Shown piece by piece: positions 14,890 to 56,009 of a stretch of DNA of 64,000 nt. The notes under the pieces were generated by a model, which worked only from the letters and a program-made list of their open reading frames with translations, searched no databases and was not told the origin of the DNA. Source of the DNA: Amphiscolops sp. MND2022 (Eukaryota); NCBI GenBank assembly GCA_964187785.1, contig OZ076409.1:9860001-9924000 (forward strand), in the 5' to 3' direction. Numbering within the stretch: position 1 is the first letter of the stretch; each line of letters opens with the position of its first letter. The position numbers and the translations under genes were made by a program.

Positions 14890-14920
14890 GTTAGTACAAT
14901 CAACGGCTCTGTATCAACGG

Positions 14921-15277
14921 CAGGAATAGATTAAAATCCGATTTTTTAAAAAAAATCAATCAAATCCGATTTTTTATATTCATGGTCGAATTTTTTGGTT
15001 TTAAAGATTTTTTCTGATTTTTTTTTCTGGGAAAACAATATTGTTTAAAAAGATGAAATAAATTCATTTCAAAGCTCTGCAAACTTTGATTTATTCAAAA
15101 CTTTGAAGCAGAATAAAAGTTTGGCAGCTTTTTCGGTTCTTCGATCTTTCAAATTTCTCCCAAACATCGGCAGATTTTTGACCGGGAGCCATGATTACCA
15201 ATTTTCTGATTTTAATTTTTAAGAAATCATGATTTCAATCAATGATATAAATCAACGATATAAATCAACCATTCCTG
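14921..15277. mobile_element. hAT-like MITE
   Basis: caggaatagat...atcaaccattcctg TIRs. Flanks atcaacgg / ataacgg resemble a decayed 8-bp TSD. Confidence 0.55.
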
Positions 15278-18082
15278 ATAACGGTATTTTGACTTTGCAG
15301 GAAAAATTAAAGATGATTGAAATTTTCTCTCGATATTAATACAATAAGAGGCCAGCAGAGCAGCGAGAATTTTCAAGCCCCAAAACGTTTCAGTTTTTTT
15401 ATTACTCTCAATATTGACCGACCTTTCAATATTGACCGAAGTTTTTTAAAACGTTATGAAACTGCTGAAAATTTTATTTAAAACTTGAAATGCCACGGCT
15501 CATTGTGGTAAAAAACAATGCTATAAAATTTCCATTAGTGTTTCATGGCGCGAAATTTTAGCAAATATTTTTGAACCGCTCGAATTATGATCTGAATTAT
15601 GACATGTGCAGTTGTCCTAGTTCGAGGAATGAAGTATCTCCTTTATTGGGTACTTCTATCTAATGTTGCTATCTAGAATTTTGCAAACTATTCCAACAAA
15701 GGGTATTAGTTTCACAACTAGGGGTAAGTCCATTTTACATACCCTTTCTGAATATGCCACGTGTAGCTGATCGAATGTATATTATTGCAATGATTTGTCA
15801 AATAGGTTCAAATTTCATTGGACCAGACTCATTTCCTTCAGCTTTCAATTTCCAAATATGGTCCAGTTTGACACCATGGCAGTTATTTTGATATAATTCC
15901 GGAATTTATAGGGTCCCCTAAATAGCCATACCAAACTTACTGCTCAATGACGAAAGCAGTTCCAAAATAAGTCACGCGTCAAAATAGTTGCCGGGTATTT
16001 GAGGGGTCAACTACCATATATGGAAATATCAGCCGTACGTTTTGAAGCCAAGCACTTTCAAGGTTTCATTTGATGTGTCTAACTGTGGCTCCCGATACAT
16101 ACTTTAATGGCCTGAAAAATGCGCTTAGGGGGATTAAAGTAACGGCGTGTTTCAAAATAAGTCACCCCAAACTGAAGAAAAATGAGTTACTTTATATTGT
16201 GCAAGGTAAACACGGTTATTGTAAGAAATCCGAAGAGTTCACGGTTTAGTTTCTTCTAAAGTGTATTTACACATTATTATCCGCCTATTTTTCAATGGTA
16301 ATGAAAAATTACTAATTCAGCCGCGGTTTTTCCAATCATGTTTCAATTTCAAACCCAATTTATCTAGGTTGTTCCACAGAAATGAACTGCCAGAGAGTTA
16401 GGTTCATATGATGAGTATATATCCAGATATTTGAACTTTTTGTTGAAAAAAAAGACTACCATAAGTGCCGCGATATGACAAACTGACACCAAAAATTCCA
16501 AAACTACCTAATTCAGACCATTTTGTGCAATCTTTGTACAATTTTTGGAAAATTTCCGAGGGTTACAGTATCCACAGAGATTTACATTAAATCAAGAGGT
16601 TATCCAACACGCTTTTAAGAAAAACTTTTCAAAAAAAACCAAGACGTCCCCGGAAACTAATTGTTTCGAGTATTTTAGTTTAGTCCGATATTTTTGTATC
16701 ATTTTTGACTGTTCGCATACAAATAAACATCTACAAAATCCAAAAACAAAACATTCACGTGATACTTCTCGAATTCGAAGTTTGTTGTTTTGAAAAGGCA
16801 AGCAACAAGAGCACAAGATTTCATTTTCAAATTTTGACAATTTTTTGCTACTTTTTATTAAGTTTTGAATGTTTTTGAGGGGTCTTCTTCTACTGAGAGT
16901 TCAAAGAAACAGACTTTTATACTGAGCACACTTTTAAAGAACGAAATTTGAGGGTTTCCTTATAAAAAGTCTCGTAAACAATTAATGCAACTTTTTCTTC
17001 CAAGTTTTGAGTTTTATGCAACTTTGGTCAAATGTTAGATGCTTTGGTGGGTATTACAAAAACAATAGTTCAAAGTGAACAAATGTATATTTTCGGCAAC
17101 TTTTTGTAAGAGTTCAGAGGTTTGTAGCTTAAAAAGCCTCGAAATGTCCAAAAACAGCGAAATTGCCTAAAATTGTCAATTGCGATAATTTTACTTTGTC
17201 TACGAAATGTGGTTGCATGTAATGTGAAAGATTATCCACAGATTCCAACGAAAAATTTGACCACAAAGAATAATGTGGGAAACCTTCAGTGTTTATCAAT
17301 CAATGAAATACGTGAAATGAATCAAAAGGTTTCAGCTTTTTCTCTGTTTTGACTGTTTTATGCATTTTCGTTTAACATTCGAGTGCTTTCGCGGGTTGAA
17401 ATTCCACATAAAAGCTAGAACAATTCGGAGGCTACATTACAGTTTTTGGAAGTGAGGAAAACGACTTATCCGTTATAGTTGTCTTTATGAACCAAAATTA
17501 TTTAGTTTTTTTTTGGTGTTTAAACAATTTTTGTATCATAACGTGGGTTCAAAGGTTCAGAAAAAAACAAAAAAATGCTGCTTGGGCTGGTAAGCATTTT
17601 ACCAAGAAGAAATTGTTTAGTTTTCTTGAACTAATCTAAATTTTGACATTTTGTGTTCATGAGGTATTCAATGCATTAGGCTTTCGTTGAAGTAAATTTT
17701 GATTTTCTATTTACTATTCACCTTTGAGCAGGTTTTTCGCTCTTAGCTAAGTTGTATGGTCAATAGGAAAATCGCACATGGCAAAGAAACTTGAAAAAGC
17801 ACCGGCGAGCAGTCACACATTTGTGACTTTGAAAAAGTCACTTCAAAGTCACTGCTTTAAGCCAAACATTTTGTGACACTTGGCTGTAATTATGTTACCG
17901 TAGCTTGAGGAGTGTCCAGGAAAGGCACCGTTTTAGAAAAGCAGACATGCGCTTTCGACATTTACCCTGTAGAATTGAGGAATTGAACTTTCATCTTTAT
18001 TCTCATCCATTGAATGTTCAATGTGAATTGGGTTTCTTTTTTTGTATATTTTGGAGTGAAAATATTTTAGGGGATATTTTGA

Positions 18083-18335
18083 GGAGGAAAATCATGATAT
18101 GTGTTGCGTTTTATTCCCAAATTCTGCCAAATCTCCCAGTTCCTCCCACTTATAGTTACTTGACGCGCGCCATCCACTACTTGACTATTTTATATAGTTA
18201 CTTGACTACTTTAGTTACTTGAACACTTGCAAAATCTCCACTATGGCAGGCACGAGGTCGTGGGTTCAAACCCGGGCTGATGCGTTACATTTTTAGTGGA
18301 AAATATCCCGGTGCTTAGCGGGCGTTATCATATAT
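18083..18335 (+). repeat. Short dispersed repeat with tRNA B-box-like motif (family D)
   Basis: Contains ggttcaaaccc and 'gttacttgac' subrepeats. A second copy at ~50900-51061 plus 55084-55160 is split by an LTR element. Confidence 0.6.
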
Positions 18336-20086
18336 TAAGTCAATATACCGAAAATACCCCGGTTTCGGATTTGAAACTTTTAAAGGCATTTGTTTCTATT
18401 ATCTTTCCACATCGAAATAGAATGGCCCTTGTTTGGGTTGAATCAACTGCAGCCAGTTCTCAAGATTATGCTTCTTTTTTTAATAGGGTAAACTTGACGG
18501 AAGTGTAAAAAAAATGTGAATTTCAACAATTTTTTCCTACGAAGTGTTCCACGCAAGTTCTTACCAAGTTTTATTCGAAAACACAGGGAATGTTGATTGA
18601 ATCAAATGGACAATTATCGTGCATTTTCGGTTGATATTCTAGTTATCCCTTGAGTTCCTCAAAAACTATTGAAACTGTTCCTGAAATAAAATAGAAACTT
18701 TGAGAAAAAATTTACTAGCCTCTTTTCGAGTCAACAACATTTTGGTTTGGCTAGTGATTAATGCCTTTGGTAAGCAGCAATCAATTGTCAAGACAACGGT
18801 TCCCTCGGTCCTGTCCAAAAGCATTGTGCCTGAATTTGATCATTTTAACTTTTAAACAGATTTCAATTCCGATACCGAAAAGTTTACTGTACAGCTCTGG
18901 TTCCTGGATTCATGCCAAATTTCCACAAAATATTATTTGGGTCCTCAATTTTCATTTGCTGCAAGTTCTTGCTAATGAGTCATTCAAAAATACAAAAATG
19001 TATTTGACTTTTCGAAGCGTTTTTCAAGCAGTTCAAGTGCTGTTTTTTGTCATAGCTAACGATAAATTCATTGCTGCTTTCTTTATTCGTTGGTTCGTTG
19101 AACTTTTTCATTCATTAGTCAAAATGTTTTATTCAACCTCTTCAACAGAACTCTTTGTTTTGAGATTACCTGGTTTTGAATAGATTAACCAAAAATTTAG
19201 TACTTCAATAATAGGATAAGATCGCAATCTGCAGGATTTAATTTTCATAATTGAACACCTTTTTACAATATACTGAACGGAATAATGAAAAACACATGTG
19301 TGCGTTTATTTGATGACTCATCCTTTTGGGTCATACTGGTCATTTTATATCACTGTCGCATCCGCGGGCATGAATTGATCTGTTGATTATTGGATATAGT
19401 TGATGTATTCTGAGTCATTCGAAAGCATCTTTACATACTAAATCGTTCACGCAGGCCTTAAGTTTACATGACATGACGCATGTTTTTCGAGACTAGCTTT
19501 TTGAGTCGATAAAATTTTCACTTTGATTCAAATTTAATAGCCACTAGAAACATGCATGTTCAACTTCTTAACTTCCATTGGATTGATTTTTCGTTTGAAC
19601 AAATTATTCTTCACTCACTTCAACTGTGACTATGTTCAAATTAACGTTTTTTTTGTGACTCAAGAAATAAAGCGGATGATTTCTTCATCAAAAATGAGTG
19701 ACTTCATAGGGAAAAATGGTGATAATCCTAAACTGCCACCTTTAAATTGAACTCAAAATTAAAGGTTTTTGGTACGGTTTTCAATCTTTTTTATTGTAAT
19801 ATTCTGACTGAATTTGGCGGTGGGGGTGTTGGGTGTTGGGACGGAAAAGAACCAAATTATATTGTAGACCTTACATGATTTCATACAAGGTGATTAGTTA
19901 CTAATTTATAACAATTTTTCAATATTTTAGCAAATTTCACACGCGTAGAGCGATGTGTTAGGGAAAATGTTCCCTATTTTCTCCGATTCCAACAAAGATT
20001 TTTATCAATATTTGTTTCCAGAAAAAAAATTGCTGAAATAATTGAACGAGCTGTCTTTAGTTCTTGAATTGAATCAATTGTTCTAG

Positions 20087-20261
20087 TGCGTTCGGGGGAG
20101 AAATTTACCCCTACTGCGTGGGCACTGACCCCGAGAATCCAGACGATGAGAACAGCGAAGGTCTCGTCTTCACAGAAGATGACGTCATCAAATACATGAC
20201 ACAACTGCTGCAAGCCGTGCAATTTTTACACAAAAACAATATTCTTCACCTCGACCTCAAA
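20087..20261 (+). CDS. STK17: DRAK/STK17-like kinase, exon B
   Basis: Acceptor ttctag. Encodes (Y)AFGGEIYPYCVGTDPENPDDENSEGLVFTEDDVIKYMTQLLQAVQFLHKNNILHLDLK. Donor GTTAGT at 20262; phase matches exon A. Missed by the ORF track. Confidence 0.93.
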
Positions 20262-20672
20262 GTTAGTTGACCTCGACCCCAAAGTTAGTTGACCTCGACC
20301 TCAAAGTTAGTTGACCTCGACCTCAAAGTTAGTTGACCTCGACCTCAAAGTTAGTTGACCTCGACCTCAAAGTTGGTTGACCTCGACCTCAAAGTTAGTT
20401 GACCTCGACCCCAAAGTTAGTTGACCTTGACCTCGACCTCAAAGTTAGTTGACCTCGACCTCAAAGTTAGTTGACCTCGACCTCAAAGTTAGTTGACCTC
20501 GACCCCAAAGTTAGTTGACCTCGACCCCAAAGTTAGTTGACCTCGACCTCAAAGTTAGTTGACCTCGACCTCAAAGTTAGTTGACCTCGACCTCAAAGTT
20601 AGTTGACCTCGACCCCAAAGTTAGCTGACCTCGACCTCAAGGTTTGTTGACCTCGACCTCAAAGTTAGTCAC
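20249..20672 (+). repeat. 22-bp minisatellite (CCTCGACCTCAAAGTTAGTTGA, 19 copies) made from the exon B/intron junction
   Basis: Counted directly: 8 units, a 6-bp ccttga insert, then 11 units. Variants include cccc, ttgg, gctga and ggtttg. Confidence 0.95.
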
Positions 20673-20999
20673 TTCAACCTCGAAACAAAGTTTTGTCATG
20701 TAATGAATTTATTTCTATTTAATTCCAGAAATGGAAAATTGCTGTGTAATTCTACAAGATTTATCCCCGGGACCTTACTGAAATTTTTAAGTTTTATAAA
20801 AAATTACCCTGCATGCAGGCCTGCAGCATGTAAAAGGTTCCAAAAGTCTCAACTAGTGTAATATGTAAGAATGCATTTTATAAATAAGTTCTGATATTCA
20901 TCTTGTTCTTTTGAGGAATTCCTACTGCAACTTTTCAAAATTCAAGTCTTTTTATATTTATAGTATTCCAATGAAACGTGATGTATTGTAAGGTTTGAT

Positions 21000-22700
21000 T
21001 CGGATTTGTTTTTTTTTCACACCGGTTTCAATAAATATATCAAAATTCAGACCATGTACGCTGCATAATCAATCAAGGATTTAATAGAATTTCCAAAAGT
21101 TTCCGAATGACCTTTCCACATCTGGACAACTTTAAAGGGTCCATTCTTAAATTCGGTGAAGACATATTTGCAAACATGGAAACTAGAAACAGATGCGCAA
21201 GCAATACGGTTAAAACTCTGTCAATGCTTTTCAAAACCTTGTTCGAATTAAAATAGAAGACAGTACTTTTTCAAGCTTGAGACGTTCTGAAAGCATCGAG
21301 TTTTCACATATGCAGGCAACCCTATAACTGTTTTGAAAGCTTAAGTGTCAAAGATCTACAGGGAGGGTTCAAATCCGCAGGGTTGAAGTTTGAGGATTGA
21401 TCTAAATTTATAGATAATCAAGTCAGTTTCTGGTCTAGAGAACTGAACGCTATTGAATCGTTAGATTTCCAGTCTTTAGAGCTTTTAAAACTTTATAAGG
21501 TTAATTCTAGAATTAAATTGAATTTTCTCTGTTATAAACTTGCCGATACCAGAGGAACTTTGTGGAAACGAATTAACCTTTCTGAGGAACTTTTATTACC
21601 AACATGTAATAATCAAGAATCTTTGGTACGAAAATTTATTCAGTTCACTTTCATGCGATCAAGCTGTTAGGATTTGTATGAGGACAAAATCTGTATTTCA
21701 TATTTATTATATACTGCACAATTGTACAAAAATGTACGTAAGGTATATAAATGCATACCTTATATTTTATCTTACCTTAGATTTATCTTTCAGCAATCTA
21801 CCCAAAATCCAACAATCTGTCAAAACGCGAAATTTCGTTTCCCGGTTTCAGTTCATATCCACCAATTTATGGCACGGCTGGCTTCTTGCAAAATGGAATG
21901 TAAATATTAAATATTCAAGGTACCCGTCCGTTCAATTTGCAAATGCAATATTGTGCTTCTTCAAATTGAGTTTGCTGAAAAGTTTCTCTACTTCGCCGCT
22001 TGAGTTTCATAAATCATGAACTCATTCCAAATTCTTGGGTTACCTTGACCATGTGAACGGAAAATCATTTCATTCACAAGGAGCTTGTTGGATTCCATTT
22101 AATCCTGAAAAGTCGAACGAAATCTGAACAGATTGGGACCAAAATTTTGAACCGAATGTCAACTAAACAAAACTATTTTGTGGCAAATTAAGTTAACGTG
22201 ATTATCGCGGCATAATCTGAGTTGAAATTTGACAAGATTTTCGAGACTCTGTGGATTTAGTAGAAATATTTCCCTGTTCTGACGAATGTAAAACGACTGA
22301 GGAAAACGTTTTTGACATTATATTGACACTTCATAACATTAAATTCCAGCTATGAAATCCAACTAGATAGCCCACGGGACGTTAAAAAAACTTGAACATA
22401 AAAGTCAAAAGTTATAAGAAGAAAATACGAAGAGGCGTTTAAGTTTGAGAACCGAACGTAGTTGATTTTTGTGAAACCAAACGGTTCGCCTCAAGCGAAA
22501 AGCTATGGCGCGCAGAATGACAAGTTTCAACTAAATACAATTTTCCAAGTACTTACGAATCAGGTCTCAAGATTGCAGTACTCGAGATTTTGGTGTTTAT
22601 GGGCATTTGGGCGACGGAAAGTTTCTTCACAATTTGGAAATTTGCAGCAAAGAAAGTAGAACTATTTAGTTTGACGGGTTTCACGATAAGATACCATTTT
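21000..22700 (-). mobile_element. Possible decayed hAT transposase remnant
   Basis: Minus strand near 21950-22010 reads NSSGEVEKLFSKLNLKK, similar to the hAT C-terminal 'ERxFS' motif. Boundaries uncertain. Confidence 0.3.
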
Positions 22701-24689
22701 GTTTACCTTAGCCAACTTAGCCGGCTAGGGAACAAATAAATATTTCGCTGGGATAGCAAGACTATGAAGGGAGAGTTGAAAGGGTCCGATTTCGGAGCTA
22801 AACAAATTCGTGACACGAAACCGGTGATCATTTTTCAGTTAACAGCAGGCGGTTTGGAGAGCAAACAAAGCGTGAACCCGTTTGTGTCAAATAGTTCGTT
22901 CCCACGACCCAATCCAAACACTTAATCAAAGTCTTCTCGTTATGTTTCCAGTCGGCATTAGTTACATTTTGAACTCTTAATGGTTATTGTTTAAAATTGA
23001 GACGTGGTCGAAATATGTCTGAAACTCTTTGAAACCGGAAGTGTTTGCATTTTTGTTTCCGGCAACCGGAAGCGGCAACTGGGAAAGAAAGATATTTGTT
23101 GATTCGTCCGACCGATTGCATAATTGGGTTAATGATTAAAACATGCTCTAATCTGTTCCATCGCTCCACTAGGGAGGAGCACCGAAGGGTGACTCAGGGG
23201 ATAACAGGGAAGGCGACTGGTTTTCCCAACTGGTATTGAAGAGGGGAATTCGAAAACATTTGCATAGGCGAACTATGTATGGGTTCAAGTATTGGAGACG
23301 GCCCATTTTAGGACGAACTTCCTCCCAAACTCCGATTGATAGTTGTTTTGAAGCAGATGTTTGAGTTTTTACATGTACAGTTGTATGCCTTTTCTTAGGA
23401 TGTTGTATGCTTTCTCATGGATGAAGGCAATACAGTATCGTTCTAAAAAAATCGCAACCCAATTGCTTAAAATCGCAACTTTCAAATCCAAATATCTTGA
23501 AAACTGTCACGAATATGGATGATTGTCAGTTAGGAAAGTTTCTTAGAATTGTTTGTAGTTTATAAAAGTATTTGAATTTTCTGTCACGAAACTTAGAGAA
23601 GTTGAAAATGGTAATTTTTGACGAAATTTTATCAACCTTGAACATCACCATTTTCACAGAGTTGAAAAAAAATATTTTGAGAAAATTTCAGTCAATATTT
23701 TGCCCCCAAATCTACTGAGGGTTGCTAATATGATTTGATTAAAAAACTTTTTCGATTTAAAATAAAAATAATTATCTAAATACATCTATTGCAATGCACA
23801 TAGACACAAAATATATTGCATTTTTTTTTCAAAACAAATTCACCATCAATACAATTTTGTAGGTTTGGGAGATTATAAGGAATCTCAGAATAACTTTTAT
23901 ACAAAAAATTGAATTTAGGCGGCCTCTCAAATATTGAGAAAACTGAAGTTTCAATTAAAATTCTTAAAGTTTGCAATTTCACAATAAGGGTCGTAGAAAT
24001 TTTTAACATAGATGAAATTCTAAGAAACTTTTCTAGCTGGCATTTTTTTGAATTTGCGACAGTTTGCGAAATACAGAGAACTTCGCTTAATTGCACACCC
24101 ACAGGACCGACGACTGTTGTGCAATTACGCGACGTGATACTGTTTTTCGGACCGATTTCTTAGAAAAAACCTATGCAATTAGGCGAAGTTTGCAACTAGG
24201 CGATGTGCAATTAACCGATGCTAATTAGTCCTATGAAATGACGGTGGTGAACATTTTTTTTTGCAATTAAACGGAGTATGCAATTAGTGGGTGTGCAATT
24301 ATGCAAAATCCTCTGTATTTGATTTTGAATTTTGTCATTCTGAGTTTTGGAGTTGCAATATTTCAGAACGTAAGTCAGGTAATATATTTGGATGAAATAA
24401 TACAAATATACGAAATAATGATGCATAGCATACTAATAATCATCAACCTAAAACATCCCAAAGGGACAAGGAATGAGTATACATGCTCTTCGAGTCGTTG
24501 CCCCGAGAATCAATTAGGACGTATTGAATAGTTCTACTTTGATGCTTAGAAAAAAATTGAGTAGAGGTGTTTGTTATTAACAATATATAAATCAGTGAAC
24601 TTTTTTGTATATTTTCGAAGTTGAACCCTACAGAAAGACTCAATATTTTCCGGGAGTAAGTCCATCCACTTCAACCAATTGAATGCTTT

Positions 24690-25720: not shown

Positions 25721-26563
25721 AAAATGTAAAATAAAAGATGTCACTCAAGTTTTGTTGTTTTAGGCATGTATTTTATTTTATCTTGAAATATTGGAACAAA
25801 TATGAAATAGGGTATTATGCAGTATATAGTGCTTTTATACTCTTTATATAGTATATAATATGCATTTTTAGTGAGATTATTTAGTTCTGCAATAAATTCA
25901 CTTGGAAACTAAAAATAGCCCCGACGATAGTTAAAGGCTGAATAACACTAAAATATACAAGCTGCTAAAGATGTAAACAATCCGCGAAGTATCATTTCAG
26001 GTATTGATTATTTAGACATTGATCTCAGCTCTGTCGACGCTTTGTTTTGCTTAGGGTACGATTTCTCTTAGGCTAGTAATAGTTGCGGAATTATTTACTT
26101 TGATAACCTAACCAAGTTATAGTACCCTGGGAAATGACAACGGACAAATTTACATTTAACCCGTTCTCAGATTCTACACATATATTCGCGACGCTAATCG
26201 AACTTTTTATAGCTAAAATGGAGGCTCTCCCAGAAATAGCAAAAACATAACATGCTTTTGTAAAAGGAGAAATCAGAAGTTTCGGAGAGCTTTTCGTGCA
26301 ACTTTTCGTGAATATGTTGTCGCTAAAATGATTCAAGGCGGAAAATATTCAGGGCTCTTCTAGCGTTTTAGATGTTTAGAAAAAGCTGACATAGAAAAAG
26401 CGATTTGTTTCATGTCATGCTCGTTTTATGGAAATTATAGTGAAGAAAACTCTTTGCCCAGTTCCGCGAGGTGGGCGTAGAATAAGGAAAACCTGCTCTT
26501 CTGAGTCAGTTCAGGTCACTTCGGAATACTGTCTCTCCACAGCAAGCTATACTACCATATTTG

Positions 26564-27913: not shown

Positions 27914-28996
27914 CAGGGTTGGCCTGTTTTAAAACAGTTTTAAAACACAACAATAAACGTTTTAAAATATCGATAAAATACATTTTAAAACATTTTTTAA
28001 AACATTTTGAAATTTGAATAAGAAAATTCATTGTTTTTTATGTTCGATTGTTTTCACCCCCTATTTTTAGTCGGCGCATTTTCCTTTAAGGAAAAAAGCC
28101 CGACTATTACAGTGGCTAGTTTTTTTTCTTTTTTTTTTCGTCAGACCACAGAGCTCATCGCGTATGTACCACTTTTTACAGAAACTGATAAGTTCACTCA
28201 GGTAAGTTCGACCAATGCAAACTTACTGCAAAGGGTCCCCCCTTTCGTTTTTTACCTTTTTTACGTAACCTACAAAACCGGAAGACTCCAAAGGGTCCCC
28301 CCTTTCAATTTTTTTCGGCACTGTGCGAATTTTTTTTTCGAAAATTTTTATTTTTTCAAAAGAGTCCCCCCTTCGGATTTTTTGATATTTTGCAACAAAA
28401 AGTATGTTAATGAATCCCAAAGGGTCCCCCCTTTTCATTTTTCGGCACTATGCGACGTTTTCGAAGTTTTTTCAAAAAAAATTTTTCAAAAAAAATTTTT
28501 TCAAAAAAAATTTCAAAATTTTTTTTGTTTCCAGTCGAGTCGGGAAAAGTGGTTTTCCAGTCATATCGAGCATGCAAGGCACACTTTGGGTGTCTCGAAA
28601 GTGTTTTCAAAGCTTTTCATGAATACATCCTGGGCATATTTAGAAAACTCTGAGCTTTTTGAGCCTTAGATATAGCGCCGACTTTAGACGTTCCCGTCTT
28701 GTTTGAATGTGATATATCGTTTATGTTCAAAAATTCGTTTATGTTCAATTCGTTCAAAGCTGAGATGCCAACTGGATAACGAAGAGGCAGCCAATCTCTG
28801 CTTTTTGTATCGCCAAAAAACAAGAAATAATTTTCTTCAATTTACATTTCATTTAATGAAAGATTAAGAAACAATAATATCCGTTTTTCTCAGTTTGAAG
28901 TGGAAATTTTATAAAAAACAATAAAAACATGTTTAATTGCATTAAAAACTGTTTGCTTGTTTTATTTGATAAAAAACAAACTAATGACCAACCCTG
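27914..28996. mobile_element. hAT-like MITE (CAGGGTTGG TIRs) carrying a nested HINE
   Basis: cagggttggcc...gaccaaccctg. Flanks caagttta / caggtttg match at 6 of 8 positions. Confidence 0.6.
28064..28704 (+). mobile_element. HINE-like element, family A
   Basis: tttttAGTCGGCGC...cccgactat at the 5' end; gagccttagatataGCGCCGACTttAGACGttccCGTCTtgttt at the 3' end. Confidence 0.75.
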
Positions 28997-30720
28997 CAGG
29001 TTTGTCTTTGAAAATACACTACCGAAAATACATCACGGAAGCTATTGACAGTTCATGCGTTTGAACGAACACCTGATTGTCAACGGTTTAAGTGATCAAT
29101 GGTCACTCAAAAATTGGCAACTCAAGTTCGAAAAGTTTCATTAATTTTTCCGATGTATTCAGTTTTATCGTTTGCTATACGCTAAGTAAAACTTTGTAGA
29201 AAGCACCCAGTAAAGAAAAGGTTTCCCTCTTTCGTTCTATAAGCGAAACAAAAGTTCGATTTTGAACTACTTTATGAACTAGATTTTGCACTTGAGCGAG
29301 CTACTTCAGCTAATTTGTTTGAGCTGAGAAAAGCCTGACCTAAAAGTTTTCTAATCTTCCTGAATTACATAAATGAAAAGATACTTGACTACAAAAAACG
29401 GAAATATCATAATAGCAATATTAAATTCAAGTTGATCGATTAACCAAGTACATTAGAGCATTTTATCGGATTAAAAACGAAATCAACACGTGAATTTCGA
29501 TCTATTTCGCAATAAATTAGAGATTGGCCAAGTTGAATAAAACTATTACAAAGAACCTTTGATTCAGTTTGAAGCTGCTATAAAAAACTTTCGAAATTTG
29601 CCTGCTTTAATAAGTTTCTAGATCACTCGGGAGATCCGATCATTCTCGTTTGATGTATTCTTGTCAAGTTTTGGGTAACTTGCAAAGTATACAGAAGATA
29701 TACCAACGGGCTGTTTTCATGAATTTTACTATATCTTTTGAATAGAATAAGCTTCTATTAAATTATAATTTTGTTATGATCTGCGGAGAATAAGTTTGGC
29801 GACGTTGAATGACGTTGAATCTTTTGAGAAATCGTGTCGGGTTTCACACTGGTTTAAACGAGTGACGTTTCTCGTTCCTATGCAGAAAAGTCTTCAAGTA
29901 AAAACTCTTCTTTTGAAATGTAAAAATTTAGGATTCTGCTCAAATTTATTTCCTGACGGTGTTTCCTATCATATACCCATAGAAAGGGCATTTCGGTGGA
30001 AGGCGGGCAACTACAAGTCCGGTCAAATCACTTTTTTTTGGTCCCTCGAATGCTTTTGGAGAACCTAGCTCGAGTGATTATAACAAATTCGAGAGTTTTT
30101 AGAGTTCAAACCAGTGGCCTCCGTTTGATTGGAACTGAAATAGCCAACTTCACAAGATTTTGATCCAATACATCTTTTTTGGAAACTTGAGAATGCACGG
30201 ACCATGCTTCTTACCCCCAACACGAAAAAAAACTTTTATGCTTAAAAAATTTCTCGAGCGAATGAAAAAATTATAAGTTTATATAAATACTCAGAGGATT
30301 TCGATGTTTGCAGCAAAAAATTATCAGGAATTTTTGATATACTTTTCTAATAAAAAAAGCAAAATTTACCTCTCGAACAAGCTAAAATTGTAACCGTAAC
30401 GCAAATATCTATTCTAACGCAAATATTCTCCCCCATGAATAATAATGGGGGTAATGAGAAACATGGTCCGAACGCACTTTTAAATTTGAACCTGCATTCG
30501 ACGTGCATTGTTGTGGATGCTAGGTGTACAAGAGGAATCAGTGATGTCTTACAAGATTTTTATTCATCTTGCAAGATTTTGCATGGTCTTGCAAGATTCT
30601 TACAAGATTCATGCAAGACCGGCATCGGCTTGCCAGAAACTTGCATGTTTCTAACATGTTTTGTAAGAAACTTGCAAGATAAGTGTTCCAGACTAAGGTA
30701 AGTATGGAGATGTGTTTCAG

Positions 30721-30847
30721 CCGCAAAATATTCTGCTGTCTGCGCCTTGCCCCGAAGGAGACATCATTCTGGTCGACTTCGGACTCAGTCGTGCTCTGGA
30801 TGCATCCAGTGACCAGAGGGTCTTCGCCGGAACTCCGGATTATCTTG
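30721..30847 (+). CDS. STK17: DRAK/STK17-like kinase, exon C (PQN, DFG, activation loop)
   Basis: Acceptor tttcag. Encodes PQNILLSAPCPEGDIILVDFGLSRALDASSDQRVFAGTPDYL(A). Donor GTTAGT at 30848. HLDLK-PQNILL is typical of DRAKs. Confidence 0.93.
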
Positions 30848-33582
30848 GTTAGTGCTCAATGGTTGAATGAAATTTCATTCACATAAACGTTGCTTCGCAT
30901 GACATGTCAATAATATTGCCCGTTAGTCGTACGTGTAACCGAACGAGTTTTAAGAGGAACGATTGTAGTAAAATCGATCTCAAATGTGATTGGTCGACGA
31001 AATAAACAAACTACTGCATCGACTTTCATTCGATTCTGGTCGGTTGTCTTGCCTTGTCGACACGATCGAATATGATTGGATCAGTGAAAATATTCTCAAT
31101 TTTGTTATGCAACTATGATTGGTATCGAATTAAAAATGTTTGAAATGTATAAAATTTTTGCAATCGGACCAAAATGAAGACGTTTAAGGTTTTTTTACAA
31201 AAGAAGATGCTGAAAAATCAATTTGTTTTTTGGGTAAGTTTCATTTCTTGATCTTCACAAAAACGTATTTTCTTTTCTTTGAAATGATAAAATTCCATTC
31301 CACTACTTGTTATGTCATTTTCAATTCTTCATGATCGGCCAATTGCACAGTCGGCCAATTGCACCGTCGGCCAATTGATCTAGCACCACAAAAATCCACA
31401 GGTTGCAAACTCCAATTACGTCATCAATATCTAGTGGTTTCTGCAAAATCTCTCCATCTTTGAGAATTGTACCTTAAATTGAATGACCAACAAAACAGCA
31501 CTGAATTAAAATCCCTTGAAACTCGCTTCCGGTTGAGTTATTATTCGTTTTTTTAACTCTAAATGCTGGGTATGAATGAAATTTTGGTCAGTATCAAGAA
31601 TGTTCTGAACAGATTCTGCAGTTGTTCAGAAATGTTCGTATTTTCCGTCAACTTTCCAAGAATTTTGAAAGTTTTACATGCATGCACAAAAGAACAACAA
31701 AACGCAGTTAAAGTGAAGTAAAGAATAGACACAGTTCTTAAAATGATAATTTCAACTGAGTCACAAATTCCTCGACAAATTCCTAAGATAACACTTCCAA
31801 CAAGCTCTTTTTATGTTCACGTCAAGTTTATTTGTCGTCATTCGGGCTTTAGTTTTAAGCCTAGTTTATGACCAACTCTAATTGATATTTCGAAATCGAG
31901 ATGCTTGTGAAGATAACCGTGTATTTAATTTACTATGGGGGGGGGGGCATTTCTGTTGACACCTACGGGTACAATGGACGGGTGGCAACGTGACGCCCAC
32001 TCTGCAAATGACGTCATAAAACTGACGTTATGATAGATAAATGAAATTATGGTAGAGATTGAAAGAAGGGAAACTCTATGTATGAAATTCTAAATTTTCC
32101 ACAAGACACCTAGCAAAACAACCTAGCATACTTTCGCCAATTCGTCTCAAATACCCTAAGTTGCTGAACGTTGCCTAATTGAAACTGTTATTAGAGTTCG
32201 ATCCTAGGTTTGGACCTGAGTTTTTTTATAAATGGATCTTACGAAGTCTAGACAATGAAGATCAAAAAGATGTTTGAGCAACTCAATGACTCAAAATGAC
32301 AAAATTCAAATTGAATTGCCATAATGACCAAAGTTCACCAGCTTGAAACGTTTCTCGTGGGGTTCAAAAGGGTTTTGATTGTTTTTCGTCCGAAATCAAA
32401 GCATCAAACTTTGTCAGAATGAATATATATGATTCCACTGTTTAATTAAATCTACAGAAGTTGAAATGATTTTTCAAAATGAAACTGAAATCTCAACTGT
32501 TCAACTGAACTTCCTGTTATCTATCTTAAAACATGTTCTGTATTGAAATTTTTAGCTCAAGTTCTTTAAATCCAAAAAATTATGGGGAATTTTTTCATTG
32601 ACCTAATATCTCATTTTTGATAAAATTTTGATGGCTCTATGTTATCCTCAGGGCAGGCTCTTTATTAGTTTTGCTCAAAATATCCTTTTAATCTCTTGAA
32701 AACCGCTATGATGCAAATTATTGGCACTATCAATGCAACTGCAGCATCATTGTCTCTTTTAATGACACATTCATGAGGCAAAAATATGTTGTTAACCTTA
32801 ATTAACCTGGCCGTTTCTGCAAAGATTCAAGAAATTGGGTCTAAAAAATTCTATCATTAATATCTCCACCACTACGCATACCAGAGAAATGTATAGCACG
32901 TTTGAAAGGTCTGTACTAGGCTTTCATTTTGTCAGGTGAGCCCTTGTCGCTGCGCGCCCCATTCTTCAGATTTTTAGTTTTTTTTCCGGTACCACTCGGT
33001 TTTACTGCACAAGGTCTTGTTTTGGAAGGGTATTTGGTTGCTTTTCTTCATAAGCCAAGGACGTTTGAGAGAACTTAATTTTGCCAAAAAGGTAATTTCA
33101 GAAAAGTATGACCATTTTTTGCAAGAAAAACCCGTTTTTCATAGCTTTGGAGACAAATTAACTTTTTCTAATGCTTGTGCCGTTCAGGCAAAACACGGTA
33201 CCAAGAAATTGTAGAATCAAAAATGTGCTGGAGAATATGGGCTACTGGCAAAACGGATTAGAAGTTGAAAAAGGAGGGCTGCTTTAAAGTACCGCTTGGC
33301 GATTTAGTGTAAAAAGATTTTTCATCTTAGTTTGAAGTTTGTTCAAATCATTCGATGCAAAATATTCTGTTCTGTTTTTTTCCAATTAATCACATTACAG
33401 CTTTCCAGTTCTTGGACTATATCAGTTCGGTATTGATTCAGCTAAACGGATTTATTAGTTTAGAAAATGAATGATACTTTATCAAACTAATGAACGTTTA
33501 GGACATCAAAAAAGTCATCTGAAAACGTTTGAAGAAATCTTTTAAATACTTATATCTCGAATTTCTGATCATCGGTTTGATT

Positions 33583-34040
33583 TTTTAATTGGCGCATTTT
33601 GTAAAAAAAATGTGCCCGACTGTTACATAGTGAATAGTTTTTTCGTAAGACCACGGAATGTATGCGAATGGTCCACGTTTCAACAGAGCTTAAAATTTCT
33701 TCACGCCGCCAGTTTGTTCAACCAGCAGCCATGCGCGCTTCCCAAGCCGACGGCTATCGGTTCGATTCCCGATGAGGACTTAAAATCATTGTTTGCGAAT
33801 CTTTACGTGTCAGAAGGTACCCTTTGTTTTTCCGTCATTGTGCTACTTTTTTAAAAGTTTGTTCATCAATTTGGGTATTTTTTGATGTTTTTATCAAGAG
33901 AAAGCGTTTTTTGAGGCCACGGATTGCTGCTTCGAATATGTTTTGCCACTCTGAAAGTTATAAAAATTTTTCAAAAGCCACCCTTCGCCTTTCAATGAGA
34001 CTTAGCGCTTTTTGAGCTTCAAACGGGGCACCGACTTTAT
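33583..34040 (+). mobile_element. Degenerate HINE-like family A copy
   Basis: Ends ttttttaattggcgc...gcccgactgttac and tttgagcttcaaacggggcaccgact. Confidence 0.5.
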
Positions 34041-34951
34041 ATAATGAAACCGCAATAATAATAAAACCTTCACTCATCAACATTTTTGAAAAACTACTCT
34101 ACGCTGCACTCAAGTATTTGAAGAAGTCGGTCAGAGAAAGCCAAGACAAATGACACGGCAAACAGTCAAAAACTTAACAAAATGAAACACAAACACTTTC
34201 AAAATTGACAATCAGCTGCTACAGAAACTGCTCATTTTATTATTTGTCAACTTCACGATTTACGTACTTGATGACTAATCCGAACACCATTTTTGGTAAC
34301 ATGTTGGTCACACCTCGAGAAATTCACTCGAACAAATTTGATTGAACAATTCAAAAGAATGACACATTTGACCGTTCGACGATTCTTTGAAGTTCATTAT
34401 AATTTTTCGACAAAAAATGTCGTTGGAACATGATGTAGATTATCGTTCCATGACAAGGGAGGTAAAAATGGATCCAAATATTCTTTTTGTAAAAAAACAT
34501 TTACTTTGTTCCTGAGAACAACGAATATTTTCATTATTTTGTGCTATATTGTGAGGAAAAAGTATATTGGTCGAAAAGAGATCAGTTGTACAGCACTTTT
34601 TGGACTGTATTTACATCCATAAGTAGTAAGACCCCACTTTGAAGGGAACACACTGAATGGATTTTTCTACACGTCTAGTAATTAATTTCTAATACTTCAT
34701 AAAAGTTGGCCAAAAAATAGAGCCGAGTTACGTGTATTTCGCGTATACGATTAAAACCGTAATTTTTATTGGAATTTTCCATCCTTGAAGTAAATATCAA
34801 AATATATTGGCCTAAAACACTAATACAATGAAACAAAAATATATTGTATTCTACAAAACCGAAGATGAATATATTTTATTTATTTATTGTCAATATATTC
34901 AAACAATATATTTTTTTCACATTTCTGCCCATGATTTCTGGATTTTACATC

Positions 34952-35430
34952 CAGGGCTGTCATATTTTACTGTTAAAAACGATTTTTACAATTTAACATG
35001 TAAATTACGAATTTTCACATGTAAAATAGTAAAAAATGTGTTAAAATCATTTGTAGATCAATATCGTGCTGCTTTGATTTTGACGATGCCATGTGCAACG
35101 TCGTTTGTCTTAATGTTTTCGGGGCCGAAGGTCCCGCATTATCATTTTCAGATTCTGTCGCACCCTTACAATCTTTTTCAATGTGTTTTTCCATCCTTGC
35201 TGCATTATTGACAAATTCCAGCCCACAGTTTTTGCATTTTGCACGCTTGTTAGTTCCCGACAAAATTTCTTTGAAGTAGGACCACACTGGTTTCTTCTCT
35301 CGAGGCATCTCAAAATCTGAAAAACGCTGAAATCTCTGTTATCTGTTAAAAACATGTTAAAAATAGGGTGTAAATAACATGTAAAAAAAGGTCGTGTTAT
35401 AAACACATCGTTATTAACATGACAGCCTTG
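34952..35430 (-). mobile_element. Internally deleted hAT transposon retaining a BED zinc-finger ORF
   Basis: TIRs cagggctgtcat / atgacagccttg. Perfect 8-bp TSD TTTACATC at 34944-34951 and 35431-35438. ORF 35308-35015 reads MPREKKPVWSYF...AKCKNCG...RMEKHIEKDC. Confidence 0.9.
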
Positions 35431-37228
35431 TTTACATCTGAATCAAACTTTTCAACCAGCATTCAGTTTAGAGATTAATTGATTTTCACGAGCGTAATAG
35501 TCTTTTTTTTTCGCTGTTGAATCTAATTTTAGAAGCGTCATGTCTCGTAAAAATGTCCAGCAGCGTTTTGCGCAGTGGTTGAAATCTGGCAGATTATTGA
35601 TGTTCCGTTCTCACAATTAGATCACACGGCGCATGAAAGCTCTTACAACTAAGACTTGAACAAACATGCTGTCTCTCCGGATATCTAAACAGCATGTATC
35701 TTTTCACATGAAAAATTGAAGTTAACATTTCCAGGGCTTTAGTTTTCCGCTTTTGAAAAGTCAAGATTAAGTCAAGAGTTCAGTCACGTTTTGAGAATTC
35801 TGGGGCTGAGACTTAATGGTATTGAAATTAGATTGGAGTTGAATCTTTTCACAGTTAAAAACATTCTTACACGTTATTATTAGTGTATAAAACGAATTGA
35901 TGTTTTTGTTTTAGAATTTCCAAAGCTTTTTTGCTAGTGTGAAGTTTCAAAAAGCATCATTCCAGAGACTTTTGTTGAAGGTTGCAAAAAGTTTCAGGTT
36001 CGAAAATCTTCAATACAAATTATTGAGTTTCAGGTCAATGCAACAAACTTTTAAACCAGGCTGAATTACCGAAAATCCTGAAAATACTTTCGAAACATTG
36101 AAGCGTCAAACTGAATGTTTTTTGTGGTTCTTTGAAAGTTTTTTGAGAATTAGGTTCTATCGAAAATCCAGCAGATCACATTTCTAGATGAGCTTTTTTA
36201 AATATAAAACGGTAATGAGGTTAACACACATTTGGTCCGTGTTAGCATAAGCCAGACAAAATTGCTCCAGTGCATTTACTACGCAGCCAGACATCTGGAA
36301 AATACCATTATCCGGGTATTGACGACATATGTACGCAGTCTGAAACTTGAAACCTGTGTCATTTGAGTTGGTTGGGAATTTTGAATCCAAATTCCAGCAA
36401 TACGGGTTCACAGTTATTCCACTTTATTTTGCTTTAATGGTGTGCATTTATCTGAAGGTTGTTAGAATCTATGAGGAACATTGTTTACGCAGATGTAGCC
36501 ATTGTAACATGACACCGATATATACCACAGAATGTCGATACATTACATCCCTTTCAATAGTTGTACTCTTTTCGATTTGAGAATTCGAAAAATTTTCTGA
36601 CTAGCTGAAGCTATCTAAAGTTAGCCGAATTTAACCAAAACAAATATTTGTGTCGCGTTTAGGCAAAACAATGTTTCCGAGAATGTTTTTCAATGATTTA
36701 TCGATTATTGCCAGAAATTTTAACAGTTGGATAAGCCCTTGAAATTACAAGAAATTGTTTTAGATGCTTCTTGGCTTTGAGATTGTAAAAACAACAAGAA
36801 TGTGCAGTGATTGTGTATGAAACATTGATCTCAAGATATTCTTGTTTGCCTTAATGTCTGAAATAGCGCTCGGGCTAGGCTTGCAATATTTCCCCTGAAG
36901 CGACATGAAACTCTGTGTTTTTGATAACTTAACTTTCAAAAATGTTATTAAACTCTCTTAACCCGAACGCAGTTGATTAACCCTATTTCAATAATGATTC
37001 GACAAAGATATTTACTTTCGCTGAAACACAAAGACCTTGAACCAATTGCGAACCCATCCCTAGCATGAACGAGTTTGAAATATAGGAAATATTTCTCTAG
37101 GAGATACTTAGCGTTTAGTTCAATTCAAACTTTTCGAAATAATATTCCTCCATTCGTTAGTTTTCATTATCAAGTCAGGTGATTGTAAGCTTGTCCGTTT
37201 TTTTTTGACAAAAGTTTGAATGTTTCAG

Positions 37229-37277
37229 CCCCCGAATTGGTAAACTACGACCCCATAAGTTCAGCTACCGACGTTTG
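37229..37277 (+). CDS. STK17: DRAK/STK17-like kinase, exon D (APE)
   Basis: Acceptor tttcag. Encodes (A)PELVNYDPISSATDV(W). Donor GTTAGT at 37278; phases 1/2 fit the neighbouring exons. Confidence 0.92.
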
Positions 37278-37294
37278 GTTAGTTTTTTTATATC

Positions 37295-37666
37295 CAAGGT
37301 TGTTAAGGTGCTTTATTTATGAATGAAACATAAAAAAAACGTTTTTCTTTTTTTTTCACACACTTCTTTACAGTTGTTTATGGTCTAGTTTCTGACTGTT
37401 CAATTTTTTTGGTACTTTTTACATTTTTCCAGATACGTGGAAGATGATATCTGGAAAAAATCAATGAAGTGAATGACTTTCATGCTTTGTATTCATTTGT
37501 TACATTTTTGTACAATTAAATATTTGGCAAAAAATGTAAAACCATTGTGCATAACATTCCACGGTAGTTTTCACAAGCAGAAAAACAATAAAATACAAAA
37601 AACAGTATATTTTGGAAAAAAACATGTTTGAAACATTTTTCGGGTAAACTATAATTAACAACCCTG
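37295..37666. mobile_element. 372-bp hAT-like MITE with 8-bp TSD
   Basis: caaggttgtt...aacaaccctg. TTTATATC is duplicated at 37287-37294 and 37667-37674. Confidence 0.85.
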
Positions 37667-37754
37667 TTTATATCAGTGCTTTTTAATCCCCAATAATCCC
37701 CAGAAAAACCTCAATCCCCAAAAAGTTTTTTATCAATGCGGTGCTATTTTTCAG

Positions 37755-37934
37755 GAGCCTGGGAGTCGTTTGTTACGTAATGTTGACTGGCCAAAGTCCC
37801 TTTGCGGGAGAAACTGCTCAGAAAACGTCAAACAACATTTGCAACGTGGATTATGAGTTCCCAGAAGACTTGTTCAGCGGAATCTCGGAACATGCACAGA
37901 CGTTTATTTCTTCAATTTTCAAACGCAACCCAAA
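37755..37934 (+). CDS. STK17: DRAK/STK17-like kinase, exon E
   Basis: Acceptor tttcag. Encodes (W)SLGVVCYVMLTGQSPFAGETAQKTSNNICNVDYEFPEDLFSGISEHAQTFISSIFKRNP(K). Donor GTTAGT at 37935. Confidence 0.93.
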
Positions 37935-38373
37935 GTTAGTGGCGAAAATAAGTGTAACTTCTTGAAGTATGCTTTATACCACTATTTCTTATAGATTTCC
38001 GAAATCATAATACCTAAGATTTTGGTTCATTTAAACTTCGACTTGAAAGTGGTTTTTGAAAGATTGACAGACAGCGTTCGCTAAAAGATTGGTAACGTAA
38101 ATATTAAAACTGTTTTTTTTTAAAGATTCTGTATGCAGATAAACAACGATAAAGAGATGGAAAAGGATGAAGTCACCCTTGACCTGATGTTTCTTGGTAT
38201 ATACGTCATGAAAACATTTGAGAAGTCACGTTTTCCCCCAAAAAATTCAACGTTGTTTTTATTGGGACAATAGAGGGCCCCCCTTTTTTTAAAGTTAGTT
38301 GTTTGTTTTGAAAAATGTTGTCAACAACATGCCCCCGTAATACTGATAATTTGGAGCGGTTGGAAGCACCCTG

Positions 38374-39980
38374 CAGGGCTCTTAAGTTGTTAGTTAAAAT
38401 AGTTTTACCAGTTAAAAACAGTTAAAAAGGAAAAAAGAACAAGCCGGGAACGGCCCAAGTCGGCGCCATATCTAAGGCTCAAAAATAGCAAAAGGACTTC
38501 AATATGTCAAAGTATTGGTGAGTTGGGGACCCTTTTATGAAAAAAAAATTTGGGAAAAAAGTCTCACAATGCCGAAAAAAACTGAAAGGGAGGACCTTTT
38601 GGGATTTTTCAACATCCATTCTGTTGCAAAACTCCAAAAAAATTGAAGGGGGACCCTTTCGTGGGGAAATTTTTTTTTCAAAAAAAGTCGCACAGTGCCG
38701 AAAAAATCTAAAGGGGGGACCTTTTGGTCTCGTCCGGTATTGTATGTTACGCGGGAAACCTTTTTGGTTCAGTTCCTTGGGCCAACAGGTACTTTTTGGG
38801 GTTTTCTGAATTTTGTTTGGGGGTTTTCAACATCCATTTTGTCGCAAAACATCAAAAAATTGAAGGTAGGAAAATTTTTATTTTCGGAAAAAAGTCTCAC
38901 AATGCCGAAAAAAACTGAAAGGGGGGACCCTTTGGTCTCTCCCGGTATGGTATGTTACGCGGGCAAACAGGAAAAACCTTTTTGGTTCAGTTCGCTAGGC
39001 CAAATGGTGCAATTTGGTGCAATAATATTTTATAGAACTTTGATAGAACTATTTTGGTCAGTTCAGGTGGTCTTAAAAAACACTGACGAAAAGCCATGAC
39101 TATAGTCGACTTTTTTCCAGAGAAAAGAGCCGACTAAAAAACATGTAGAACTTGTTTAAAATAATAACATCAAAAACAAATGTTTTCACAGTGCAATTCC
39201 ATCACTTTTTGTTCATTTGGCAGTAGATAAACGTCAGTTTACCGGACTTCTTAACGCCCATCGATGTTCCAAAGTTTCTTTGTATCCAAAGTATAGAACA
39301 GAAAAGTTTGTACCAGAACGCTGATGGCAACTGCCAGCGCAGGTTTCATGACCTTTGTCGACCAACCGTCAATCATCATTGTGAAAACTTTGACAATCTT
39401 TGACAATGTTTTCAACCTTCAAACTACTCTTCAGCAAGCAAAAACCTTGTCAAGTAGCGGACCCGCTAGCGTTTGTCGGCTCGGAATCTTGGTTCCTGGG
39501 CGCAAAATATTAACAAGATGCCAAAAATTTACGTTTTCAACAATAGCGGAAGGGCTGTTGGTCCCAACAACAAACTTGTGGTTATAGCTGCTTCAATTTC
39601 TTGCTGCTTAGTGTGCCCAGTGCTCAAAACCTGCAGACTTGACTGAATAAGGCCTGTTGTTTCGCTGCCGACGCTCCTTGTTAGGTGCTACAGTCACCAG
39701 TTTTCTTCGAGCAAGCATTAAAATGGTCTTTCATCCTTTCAGCATTTTTGACCATTTTGTGGTTGCAGGTCTTACACCTTGCCATGGCAACACCGACAAT
39801 TTTGATGACATCAAAGTGAATCCATATGTCTTTTTTTCCACGACATAAGTCATCTGAAACACTAGTTTTTAACTAGAACCCATAGAATTTTTAATTTGAT
39901 GACATTGTTTAGAAAACTGTGTTAAAAACAGTTTAAAAAAGGCTTGCTCAATAACAATGTTATTTAACATGACAGCCCTG
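38374..39980 (-). mobile_element. Decayed hAT transposon with transposase N-terminal remnant and a nested HINE
   Basis: Ends cagggctc / atgacagccctg. Minus strand gives KDIWIHF...ARCKTCNHKMVKNAERMKDHFNAC (BED finger), VENVNFWHLVNILRPGTKIPSRQTL and TMMIDGWS. No clear TSD. Confidence 0.8.
38438..39141 (-). mobile_element. HINE-like element, family A (reverse orientation)
   Basis: aagccgggaacggcccaagtcggcgccatatctaaggctc at the left; tatagtcgac...gagccgactaaaaaa at the right; gggaccc subrepeats inside. Confidence 0.75.
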
Positions 39981-40384
39981 CATCCGAACGTACGACAACT
40001 CATATCATTCAACAACGCATTTAAATCAAAACTCGAATCAGAAAACTGCAGAAATTATTCAATTGAAGAGCAACTATTGGAAATGAAGAGGTATTAATAG
40101 GATGCCATCGCTGACATCAAGTGCCTTGAATAATCATTTTCTTATCACACCTTGATCAAAAGGTTCGTAGAGAAAGAAACCTCGATTAGAACGCATAAAA
40201 TGCGAAATAACTCGACAATTTTTAAATTTATAATCGCTGCTATATATAAATTGTTTTTGAACTATAACTTGCAACCTATTGACAAACATGATTTGAGTTG
40301 TCACTATGCCCGTCTGAAGTATTTAGTTTGAAAGCGGTCGTCAATATTTTGGTTTTACAGTGATCCACAGAGGGTATTTTTTAG

Positions 40385-40678
40385 ACACAGAGCCACAATT
40401 GAAGAGTGCCTACAACACCCCTGGATCTGCCGTAACTCTTCCTCCTCCCCCTCCTCCTCTGAGAAGAAAAGTGGGAAGAACATGTTGCAAGTGGAAGTGG
40501 TGTCAACCTCGCCTGACAGGGAGCACGTGTTTTGGGTCAACGAGGATGACCCCGATCATGACCCCAACGACGCCTCCAGGAGTGCTAGCTGCAGTCCCTC
40601 CACGTGCTCCGAAAGTTCAGAAAACTACTCGTCTCCTCTACAGACATCCAGAGCTCCGGGCTCCACCGCAATTACCAG
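40385..40678 (+). CDS. STK17: DRAK/STK17-like kinase, exon F (end of kinase domain and Ser-rich tail)
   Basis: Acceptor ttttag. Encodes (K)HRATIEECLQHPWICRNSSSSPSSSEKK...PGSTAIT(R). Donor GTCAGT at 40679. Confidence 0.85.
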
Positions 40679-41695
40679 GTCAGTTGAAGAAGAGAGTTAA
40701 TTTCTCCAATACTTTTGGGTGGACGTCGAATAAGAAGTTCTGCTTTTCTACTAGGTGAACCAAAAAAAACGGAATGTACCACATATTCACTCTTCAAAAC
40801 TCGTAGTATTTGTAAACAAGGCACTTCTGATAACCTGTCACTTTCTCTGTCAATCATCCTCTCATTACGTAATTAAATTTCCAACAAAGAATGATGCGAA
40901 CCTGCAGAAAAGTCTTTACTTTATCAGTCATGTCGTTCACACTTTTAATGTGTGAGAGTTTCTTTGGCTTCGGAGAAAAGTTGTCAAAATGAATGACTGA
41001 CAAGCTGAATTTTAATGTTCAGAGTTGTTTTGAAACATTTGTTGACAAATATTTGAACGTTAAGATAGCTCAAAAACTTTCATGAGTTCCGTTTTTCATG
41101 GTCCACTTAGTAAGTCGGCGCCCTTTCGGATATTAACTCACCATAGCAAGCTGATACCATATTTGCAGCCAAAGTTTCAAAGTGACTTGCTCAAGGCCAC
41201 AAAGGTCTGATTACTCACTGTTGCTCTTTTTATTTTTAATTTTCTCCGCCGAAGGCGGTATTTTTTGCCATTGAACATACCACTAAGCTAAGGGTGAAGG
41301 CCAACTATTTAGCTGCCGCGCAGGAATTTTTCAGTGATTTCATTAGCTATCCAAATTAGCGGCGACTAATGAATTGTCCAAATATTAAATTTCCTCAGTC
41401 TTACACGGGGTTTCAGAACGAATTTCGAAAAATTCTAGCTATTACGTTTGTAAACTCCACACAGTGTGAAAGACTTCAGTCTTTCTATCTTGCAAAAAAT
41501 AATACGGTACCGTTTAATTTTAAAATATACTTGAAATCCAACATTTGATGACAAAAATTTTCAACGAAATTTGAAATTAGCGGTTTAGCGATCAGCGAAA
41601 AATATTAACAATAAAAAAAGAATATTGAATTTATCTGACGGATTGAAGTTTCCGGCGCTTTTTGTTGACACCGCCTTGACTGAATAGCTTAGTAA

Positions 41696-56001: not shown

Positions 56002-56009
56002 CTATGTAA

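Follow-up and report, generated by a model that had tools for sequence, protein, structure and literature searches.

The donor splice sites of animal introns usually read GTAAGT or GTGAGT, and the purine at the third intronic position (+3) is among their steadiest features. The question of whether this rule holds in every animal lineage is raised by a protein kinase gene in a 64,000-nucleotide stretch of the Amphiscolops sp. MND2022 genome (assembly GCA_964187785.1, contig OZ076409.1, positions 9,860,001 to 9,924,000 of the forward strand; hereafter the window, to which all coordinates refer). A first-pass annotation had held that all six introns of this gene open with GTYAGT, and had read this as suggesting a shifted splice code, with a variant U1 small nuclear RNA (snRNA) or heavier reliance on pairing with U6 as possible causes. 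The six donors (GTTAGT at 14890, 20262, 30848, 37278 and 37935, and GTCAGT at 40679) and the exonic ends that precede them (TA, AA, TG, TG, AA and AG) are indeed found in the window, but the gene has seven introns, the overlooked first of which starts with GTGAGT at 472. The tally at +3 is T5 C1 G1 A0 (five GTTAGT, one GTCAGT and one GTGAGT), that is, a pyrimidine in 6/7 donors, and the AGT at +4 to +6, already described as invariant, extends to 7/7 once intron 1 is added. An exonic AG is absent from six of the seven donors, and G is present at -1 in 3/7. A departure from the animal +3 purine is supported for this one gene, whereas the evidence falls short of establishing a shift towards pyrimidine, as the seventh donor carries G and the tally is compatible with a free +3. 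The data reject the human +3 rule but cannot separate preference from relaxation, so that GT-N-AGT is the safest description of these donors.

The gene, an intact STK17/DRAK-type kinase on the forward strand, is composed of eight coding exons and seven introns, with an open frame of 464 amino acids. Its second coding exon (14689..14889), which runs from the glycine loop to the hinge and gives a weak Pkinase match under the curated cut-off, starts mid-codon inside the glycine-rich loop and therefore needs an upstream exon. In positions 1-14600, a scan for phase-2 donors preceded by a hydrophobic residue and glycine gave seven candidates, of which that at 472 was chosen; an open stretch starting with an ATG at 413 leads up to it. 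The resulting coding exon 1 (413..471), matched at 100% (tblastn) by residues 1-19 of a database protein, P0001, is followed by the only donor with a purine at +3 (472..477, AAT/GTGAGT, the slash marking the exon end), which opens an intron of 14217 nucleotides (nt) in phase 2 (472-14688). Exon 2 ends in CTA/GTTAGT (14890..14895; intron 2, 5197 nt, phase 2), and exon 3 (20087..20261), which stops within the catalytic-loop HLDLK, in AAA/GTTAGT (20262..20267; intron 3, 10459 nt, phase 0). The DFG motif is encoded by exon 4 (30721..30847, 127 nt), followed by TTG/GTTAGT (30848..30853; intron 4, 6381 nt, phase 1), and the APE motif by exon 5 (37229..37277, 49 nt), followed by the same context, TTG/GTTAGT (37278..37283; intron 5, 477 nt, phase 2). 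Exon 6 (37755..37934, 180 nt) precedes AAA/GTTAGT (37935..37940; intron 6, 2450 nt, phase 2), and exon 7 (40385..40678), which holds the end of the kinase domain and the start of a serine-rich tail, precedes CAG/GTCAGT (40679..40684; intron 7, 2490 nt, phase 2), the sole donor with an exonic AG. The last coding exon, stop included (43169..43478), was placed by colinearity with P0001 and with a further protein, P0005.

P0001, which has 457 amino acids, is encoded on a 1896-nt contig and was retrieved in a search with exon 2, is identical to the eight-exon model in 410/464 columns and colinear with it across 7/7 junctions; for P0005 the identity is 409/464 columns, and both proteins match the first 19 residues, encoded by exon 413-471. 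This uninterrupted colinear protein from a relative suggests that the introns are removed. Each of the seven junctions admits exactly one GT/GC-AG placement among the equivalent slides of up to 12 nt. It had been argued that the boundaries are fixed by kinase motifs, which is not so for the donor at 40679: the junction 40678/43169 lies outside the kinase domain, and the donor is supported by the colinearity of P0001 and P0005 over it, while read-through at 40679 would meet a stop at 40700. All seven introns have GT-AG termini, with CAG or TAG acceptors after T-rich runs, and are major-spliceosome (U2-type) introns. A minor, U12-type class, whose hallmarks are an RTATCCTT donor and a TCCTTAAC branch site (available excerpts of PMC3488318), was rejected, since over +3 to +8 each of the seven donors differs from the U12 donor in 4-6 of the 6 positions, and one loose branch-like match was found in the seven introns. 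The junctions are known here from DNA and from the protein of a relative, which leaves some room for mis-prediction; given the colinearity, the unique placements and these mismatches, we give next to no credence to either mis-predicted junctions or U12-type introns.

GTNAGT follows just 1.5% of the 2206 intronic GT dinucleotides, so that its presence at 7/7 junctions is a splice signal. Among human GTNAGT donors, C or T occupies +3 in 3854/63411 cases (6.1%, summed from Table 1 of PMC5387049, from which the human data alone were used, its value of A <1% at +3 in fly and worm being at odds with the usual picture of these species). At this human rate, six or more pyrimidines in seven donors have a probability of 3.3e-7, and 7/7 AGT one of 1.9e-4 at the human share of 29.5%. 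Were +3 free, the probability of at least six pyrimidines would be 0.067 (intron composition), 0.187 (bases after intronic GT) or 0.070 (T_A context), and the likelihood of T5 C1 G1 A0, which is 4e-9 under human GTNAGT usage, would be 3e-3 to 2e-2. A less demanding comparison is with an ordinary GTRAGT-led lineage, perhaps with 10-30% pyrimidine at +3, in which these seven old introns happen to be extreme. Such a local coincidence is favoured by the choice of one gene after the fact, by the canonical GTGAGT of the overlooked intron 1 and by the tolerance of GTTAGT in many AT-rich invertebrates. The AGT part of the pattern would likewise be explained by old introns, which carry more of their signal on the intron side (PMC3488318, in the excerpts available). 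However, at least six pyrimidines would occur with a probability of 6e-6 at a background of 10% C/T, 4e-4 at 20% and 4e-3 at 30%, and A, which none of the seven donors has at +3, is the consensus base there in human (PMC5387049) and is kept in sea urchin (PMC2721852, as far as its available text goes). We consider coincidence unlikely, although it deserves to be taken seriously.

The age of the introns is suggested by the relatives of the kinase. When 8000 candidates were scored, the best named matches among the 120 listed were STK17A-like kinases, with 45-49% identity over the kinase domain; homology marks the protein as that of an animal. The GC content of the window, 36.8%, is near the 36.7% of the acoel Symsagittifera roscoffensis (PMC9911081), and the style of the repeats would also suit an acoel, but no named acoel protein was among those 120, and an acoel origin was not adopted on these grounds. 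The protein has a protein kinase domain, catalytic motifs that do not vary when it is aligned with six named homologues, and STK17A/B as its nearest named relatives. It is like the STK17A/DRAK1-type in its kinase-domain identity and catalytic motifs, and differs from it by a long branch, an acidic insertion of 10 residues and a serine-rich tail of greater length; in the tree, long branches meet and no close named relative is found. Relative to the six named homologues, four residues are missing before helix C from the part encoded by 14689-14889 and 20087-20261, and the acidic insertion of this part follows the hinge. Junction 1 is the exact point at which two termite isoforms diverge, two further database proteins are cut off at junctions 1 and 2, and human STK17A presumably has exons of the same 127, 49 and 180 nt. 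Junctions 1 and 2 at least look shared with other animals, so that the introns are probably old and their donors would have been changed in place.

The weak exonic ends together with the strong AGT had also been taken as a sign of a new code, which they do not require, since they match a known intron-side class of donors and old introns (PMC11732430 and PMC3488318, both available in part). The NN//GURAG (U6-class) donors of animals and plants have a weak exonic end, +4A and +5G, and their recognition is weighted to the U6 ACAGA box (PMC11732430, in the part available). The donors of the window gene resemble this class in having +4A and +5G in 7/7, a weak exonic end and, in 6/7, no need of an exonic AG, but the class is defined by a +3 purine, found here in 1/7, so that they would work alike without being members by definition. 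Codons for Tyr, Trp and Lys determine several of the exonic ends, although the Lys before intron 3 is encoded by AAA where AAG was free. At the codon of junction 1 the six aligned named homologues have Arg (G at -1), while P0001 has Lys and the window gene Ile, a replacement by which the exonic G at -1 was lost.

A lineage-wide relaxation or shift at +3 with an unchanged U1 is the explanation that we favour, and extending it from one gene to the lineage seems to us slightly better than an even bet. The +3 purine requirement would be relaxed, or tipped to pyrimidine, across the lineage; the unchanged 5' arm of U1 would tolerate a mismatch at its position 6, and site choice would lean on the intronic positions when the donor is handed over to the U6 ACAGA box. 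The AGT at +4 to +6 would face U6 A43, C42 and A41, and +3 would face G44, with which the usual purine interacts weakly in the B complex (PMC11732430, available excerpts). The idea of a heavier reliance on U6 gains support from this position of +3, and G44 could wobble with a +3 U or form a Watson-Crick pair with a +3 C. Accompanying shifts may have occurred in protein helpers (U1C, Luc7, SNRNP27K) or in the modification of an snRNA. The +3 position carries three different bases (T, C and G), with all of which no single U1 base pairs alike, and pairing with the unmodified canonical U1 arm ranges from -1.7 to -8.0 kcal/mol over the seven donors.

Alternatively, the main U1 or a second one could have A or G at arm position 6, pairing with +3 U (or with U and C). 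This has a precedent in Entamoeba, where the U1 arm ACAAAC has co-evolved with GUUUGU donors and its pairing includes the +3 U; the same preprint, in the part of its text available, describes GUGCGC donors with an ACGUAC arm in Mastigamoeba and an extra pairing potential of the Entamoeba donors with U6 ACAGA (bioRxiv 10.1101/2022.06.08.495308). In the window gene, A at arm position 6 would improve 5/7 donors and G 6/7, with about 4 kcal/mol for the five GTTAGT, but this gain arises by construction and is therefore not evidence that such a U1 exists; besides, both variant arms pair worse with GTGAGT, so that canonical U1 or tolerance would also be needed. The gene is like Entamoeba in having U as the common +3 base. 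Entamoeba is, however, an intron-poor amoeba with U at +4 and near-invariant donors, whereas the window gene belongs to an animal, has introns of 0.5-14 kb and keeps A at +4; seven introns in one gene, six of them >2 kb, are not intron poverty, a term that fits the intron-richer Mastigamoeba loosely.

Compensated U1 has been reported for amoebozoans alone, and most lineages with shifted donors keep their U1, according to the available portions of the sources concerned. In Saccharomycotina, a +4U shift is accompanied by an unchanged U1 in 236 yeast and outgroup genomes (PMC10581693); donors have shifted with U1 unchanged in green algae (prasinophytes, Micromonas) and Thecamonas (bioRxiv 10.1101/2022.06.08.495308, PMC3033335); and in the tunicate Fritillaria U1 is unchanged, while snRNA methylation and U2AF have changed instead (PMC13326754). 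The window gene is comparable to these systems in that its donors depart from U1 complementarity, which in them is caused by U6 modification or proteins; it differs in that their shifts affect +4 or the terminal dinucleotides, whereas here it is +3 that departs, with GT-AG and AGT intact. In open-access text, no report of a co-evolved U1/donor pair was found outside amoebozoans. A co-evolved U1 appears improbable to us, and it seems a little more doubtful still that this is an intron-rich animal lineage in which GTTAGT is the leading donor genome-wide and U1 position 6 is matched to it, alone or beside a canonical U1.

The lack of A among the seven donors could also point to a positive preference for pyrimidine, arising from an altered U6 box or from a protein specific to the lineage, under which selection would disfavour A at +3. 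A best-fit T-rich model gives a likelihood of 7e-2, 3 to 25 times that of free +3 (3e-3 to 2e-2), with parameters chosen post hoc, and in C. elegans the +3 chosen is altered when SNRNP27K is mutated (PMC11732430, excerpts). Nevertheless, the absence of A has a probability of 0.07-0.20 under free +3, and the ACAGA box is invariant in 240 fungal genomes (PMC10581693) and in Fritillaria (PMC13326754), as stated in the available parts of both papers. Such a preference is, in our judgement, very unlikely.

Several observations count against a relaxed +3 read by an unchanged U1. The two AAA/GTTAGT donors pair with the unmodified canonical arm, taken without pseudouridines, at just -1.7 and -2.8 kcal/mol, and one of them opens a 10-kb intron, for which a changed U1 fits better. 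Five or more T have a probability of 0.014-0.14 under free +3, so that the predominance of T over C (five to one) could reflect a genuine preference for T. One gene with seven introns leaves a 95% interval of 0.42-1.00 for the share of pyrimidine, and the probabilities given above are optimistic, as the gene was picked after the fact for its oddness, from many windows. GTNAGT is in excess on the sense strand of the introns (32 versus 14), but this excess ranks 3 of 64 comparable motifs and lends no support. A second intron-bearing gene was not found in the window, where a GC-rich AG...GT exon scan of both strands, not exhaustive since it missed two true exons, returned six kinase exons or extensions and five short unsupported candidates. 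Finally, the source of P0001 is a relative or a distant allele, and that it represents a spliced transcript is deduced from a 457-amino-acid frame on a 1896-nt contig.

Lineage-specific donor shifts are already known in kind, and the pattern in the window is a one-gene lead. No animal with a pyrimidine consensus at +3 was found described in open-access text, which does not cover figure logos and closed supplements, and per-species +3 frequencies were not found in the available parts of PMC10599564, PMC3033335, PMC2721852 and bioRxiv 10.1101/2024.12.01.626237. If the relaxed +3 is true, an animal with long introns lacking the +3 purine would offer a natural experiment on whether the donor consensus is set by U1 or by the hand-over to U6, and on the role of +3 opposite U6 G44; donor models trained on other animals would, in turn, mis-score this lineage.

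With regard to the snRNAs themselves, an Rfam scan of the window gave 0 matches, with no snRNA gene. A scan of metagenome contigs for U1 with a base other than T at arm position 6 returned 19 loci, one of them a true U1 and none (0/19) similar to the window; this collection may hold few eukaryotic U1 genes, and the scan says nothing on the window organism. The true U1 (locus L010, positions 3001-3160, forward strand, on an unrelated metagenome contig) is full-length (127 bits in Rfam); C occupies position 6 of its arm and its Sm site is shortened, and it would either pair with G at +3, not with a pyrimidine, or be a pseudogene.

The start of intron 3 lies within a minisatellite (20248..20669, forward strand) of 18.9 copies of a 22-bp unit made of the exon 3/intron 3 boundary; the array contains 16 GTTAGT, including the true donor at its start. 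Most of these GTTAGT copies share the context AAA/GTTAGTTG. Splicing from any of the 15 copies downstream would lead to a stop at codon 148, so that the first donor alone yields protein, and the array of duplicate donors lends itself to testing whether the first donor met is chosen or nonsense-mediated decay is at work. The same intron also holds a perfect canonical CAG/GTAAGT at 28202 and an AAG/GTAAGT at 30698, of whose use the protein of the relative shows no sign; their non-use is explained by exon definition, without a changed code. The second of these sites belongs to a short stretch (30684-30720, forward strand) formed by an acceptor-like TTCCAG, six bases and the perfect AAG/GTAAGT, 23 nt before the true acceptor; it is absent from P0001 and resembles either a microexon of 6 nt or a defunct site. 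At the other end of the gene, a strong acceptor-like TTCTTCAG (382-412, forward strand) is located 23 nt upstream of the kinase ATG and would be either a site of trans-splicing or the acceptor of an intron in the 5' untranslated region whose donor lies farther upstream. The GTTAGT at 389 was rejected as the donor of a 24-nt intron, as its G ends the acceptor-like TTCTTCAG.

The kinase introns contain mobile and repeated sequences. A BED zinc-finger fragment of a DNA transposon (Pfam PF02892, E 3e-4) lies on the reverse strand of intron 4 (35015-35338), and dispersed repeats with a shared terminal motif are present in at least four copies (2294-2650, 6831-7160, about 10420 and 38450-39100); this motif was found at 0 loci in viral and prokaryotic collections. 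Downstream of the kinase, a gene for a secreted PAN/C-type-lectin protein (49652-56596, forward strand) is interrupted by an insertion of 6 kb (49998 to 56001), whose inverted ends are imperfect and which has no clean target duplication. The gap was considered as an extra intron and rejected, as there is no GT at the junction and the ends are inverted, which indicates an insertion, and we take the element to be hAT-like. On contigs of the European Nucleotide Archive (ENA), paralogues of this lectin, P0127 among them, are each encoded in a single frame of about 306 amino acids; when P0127 and P0001 were used as queries for more DNA of the lineage, no confirmed loci were obtained. Inside the insertion there is a direct repeat pair (51062-51753 and 54518-55084), 94% identical over 272 nt and 79% over 297 nt, possibly the terminal repeats of a second element. 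At the opposite end of the window, an open frame on the forward strand (3-150) enters from the left edge and ends near 150, and is perhaps the last exon of an upstream gene.

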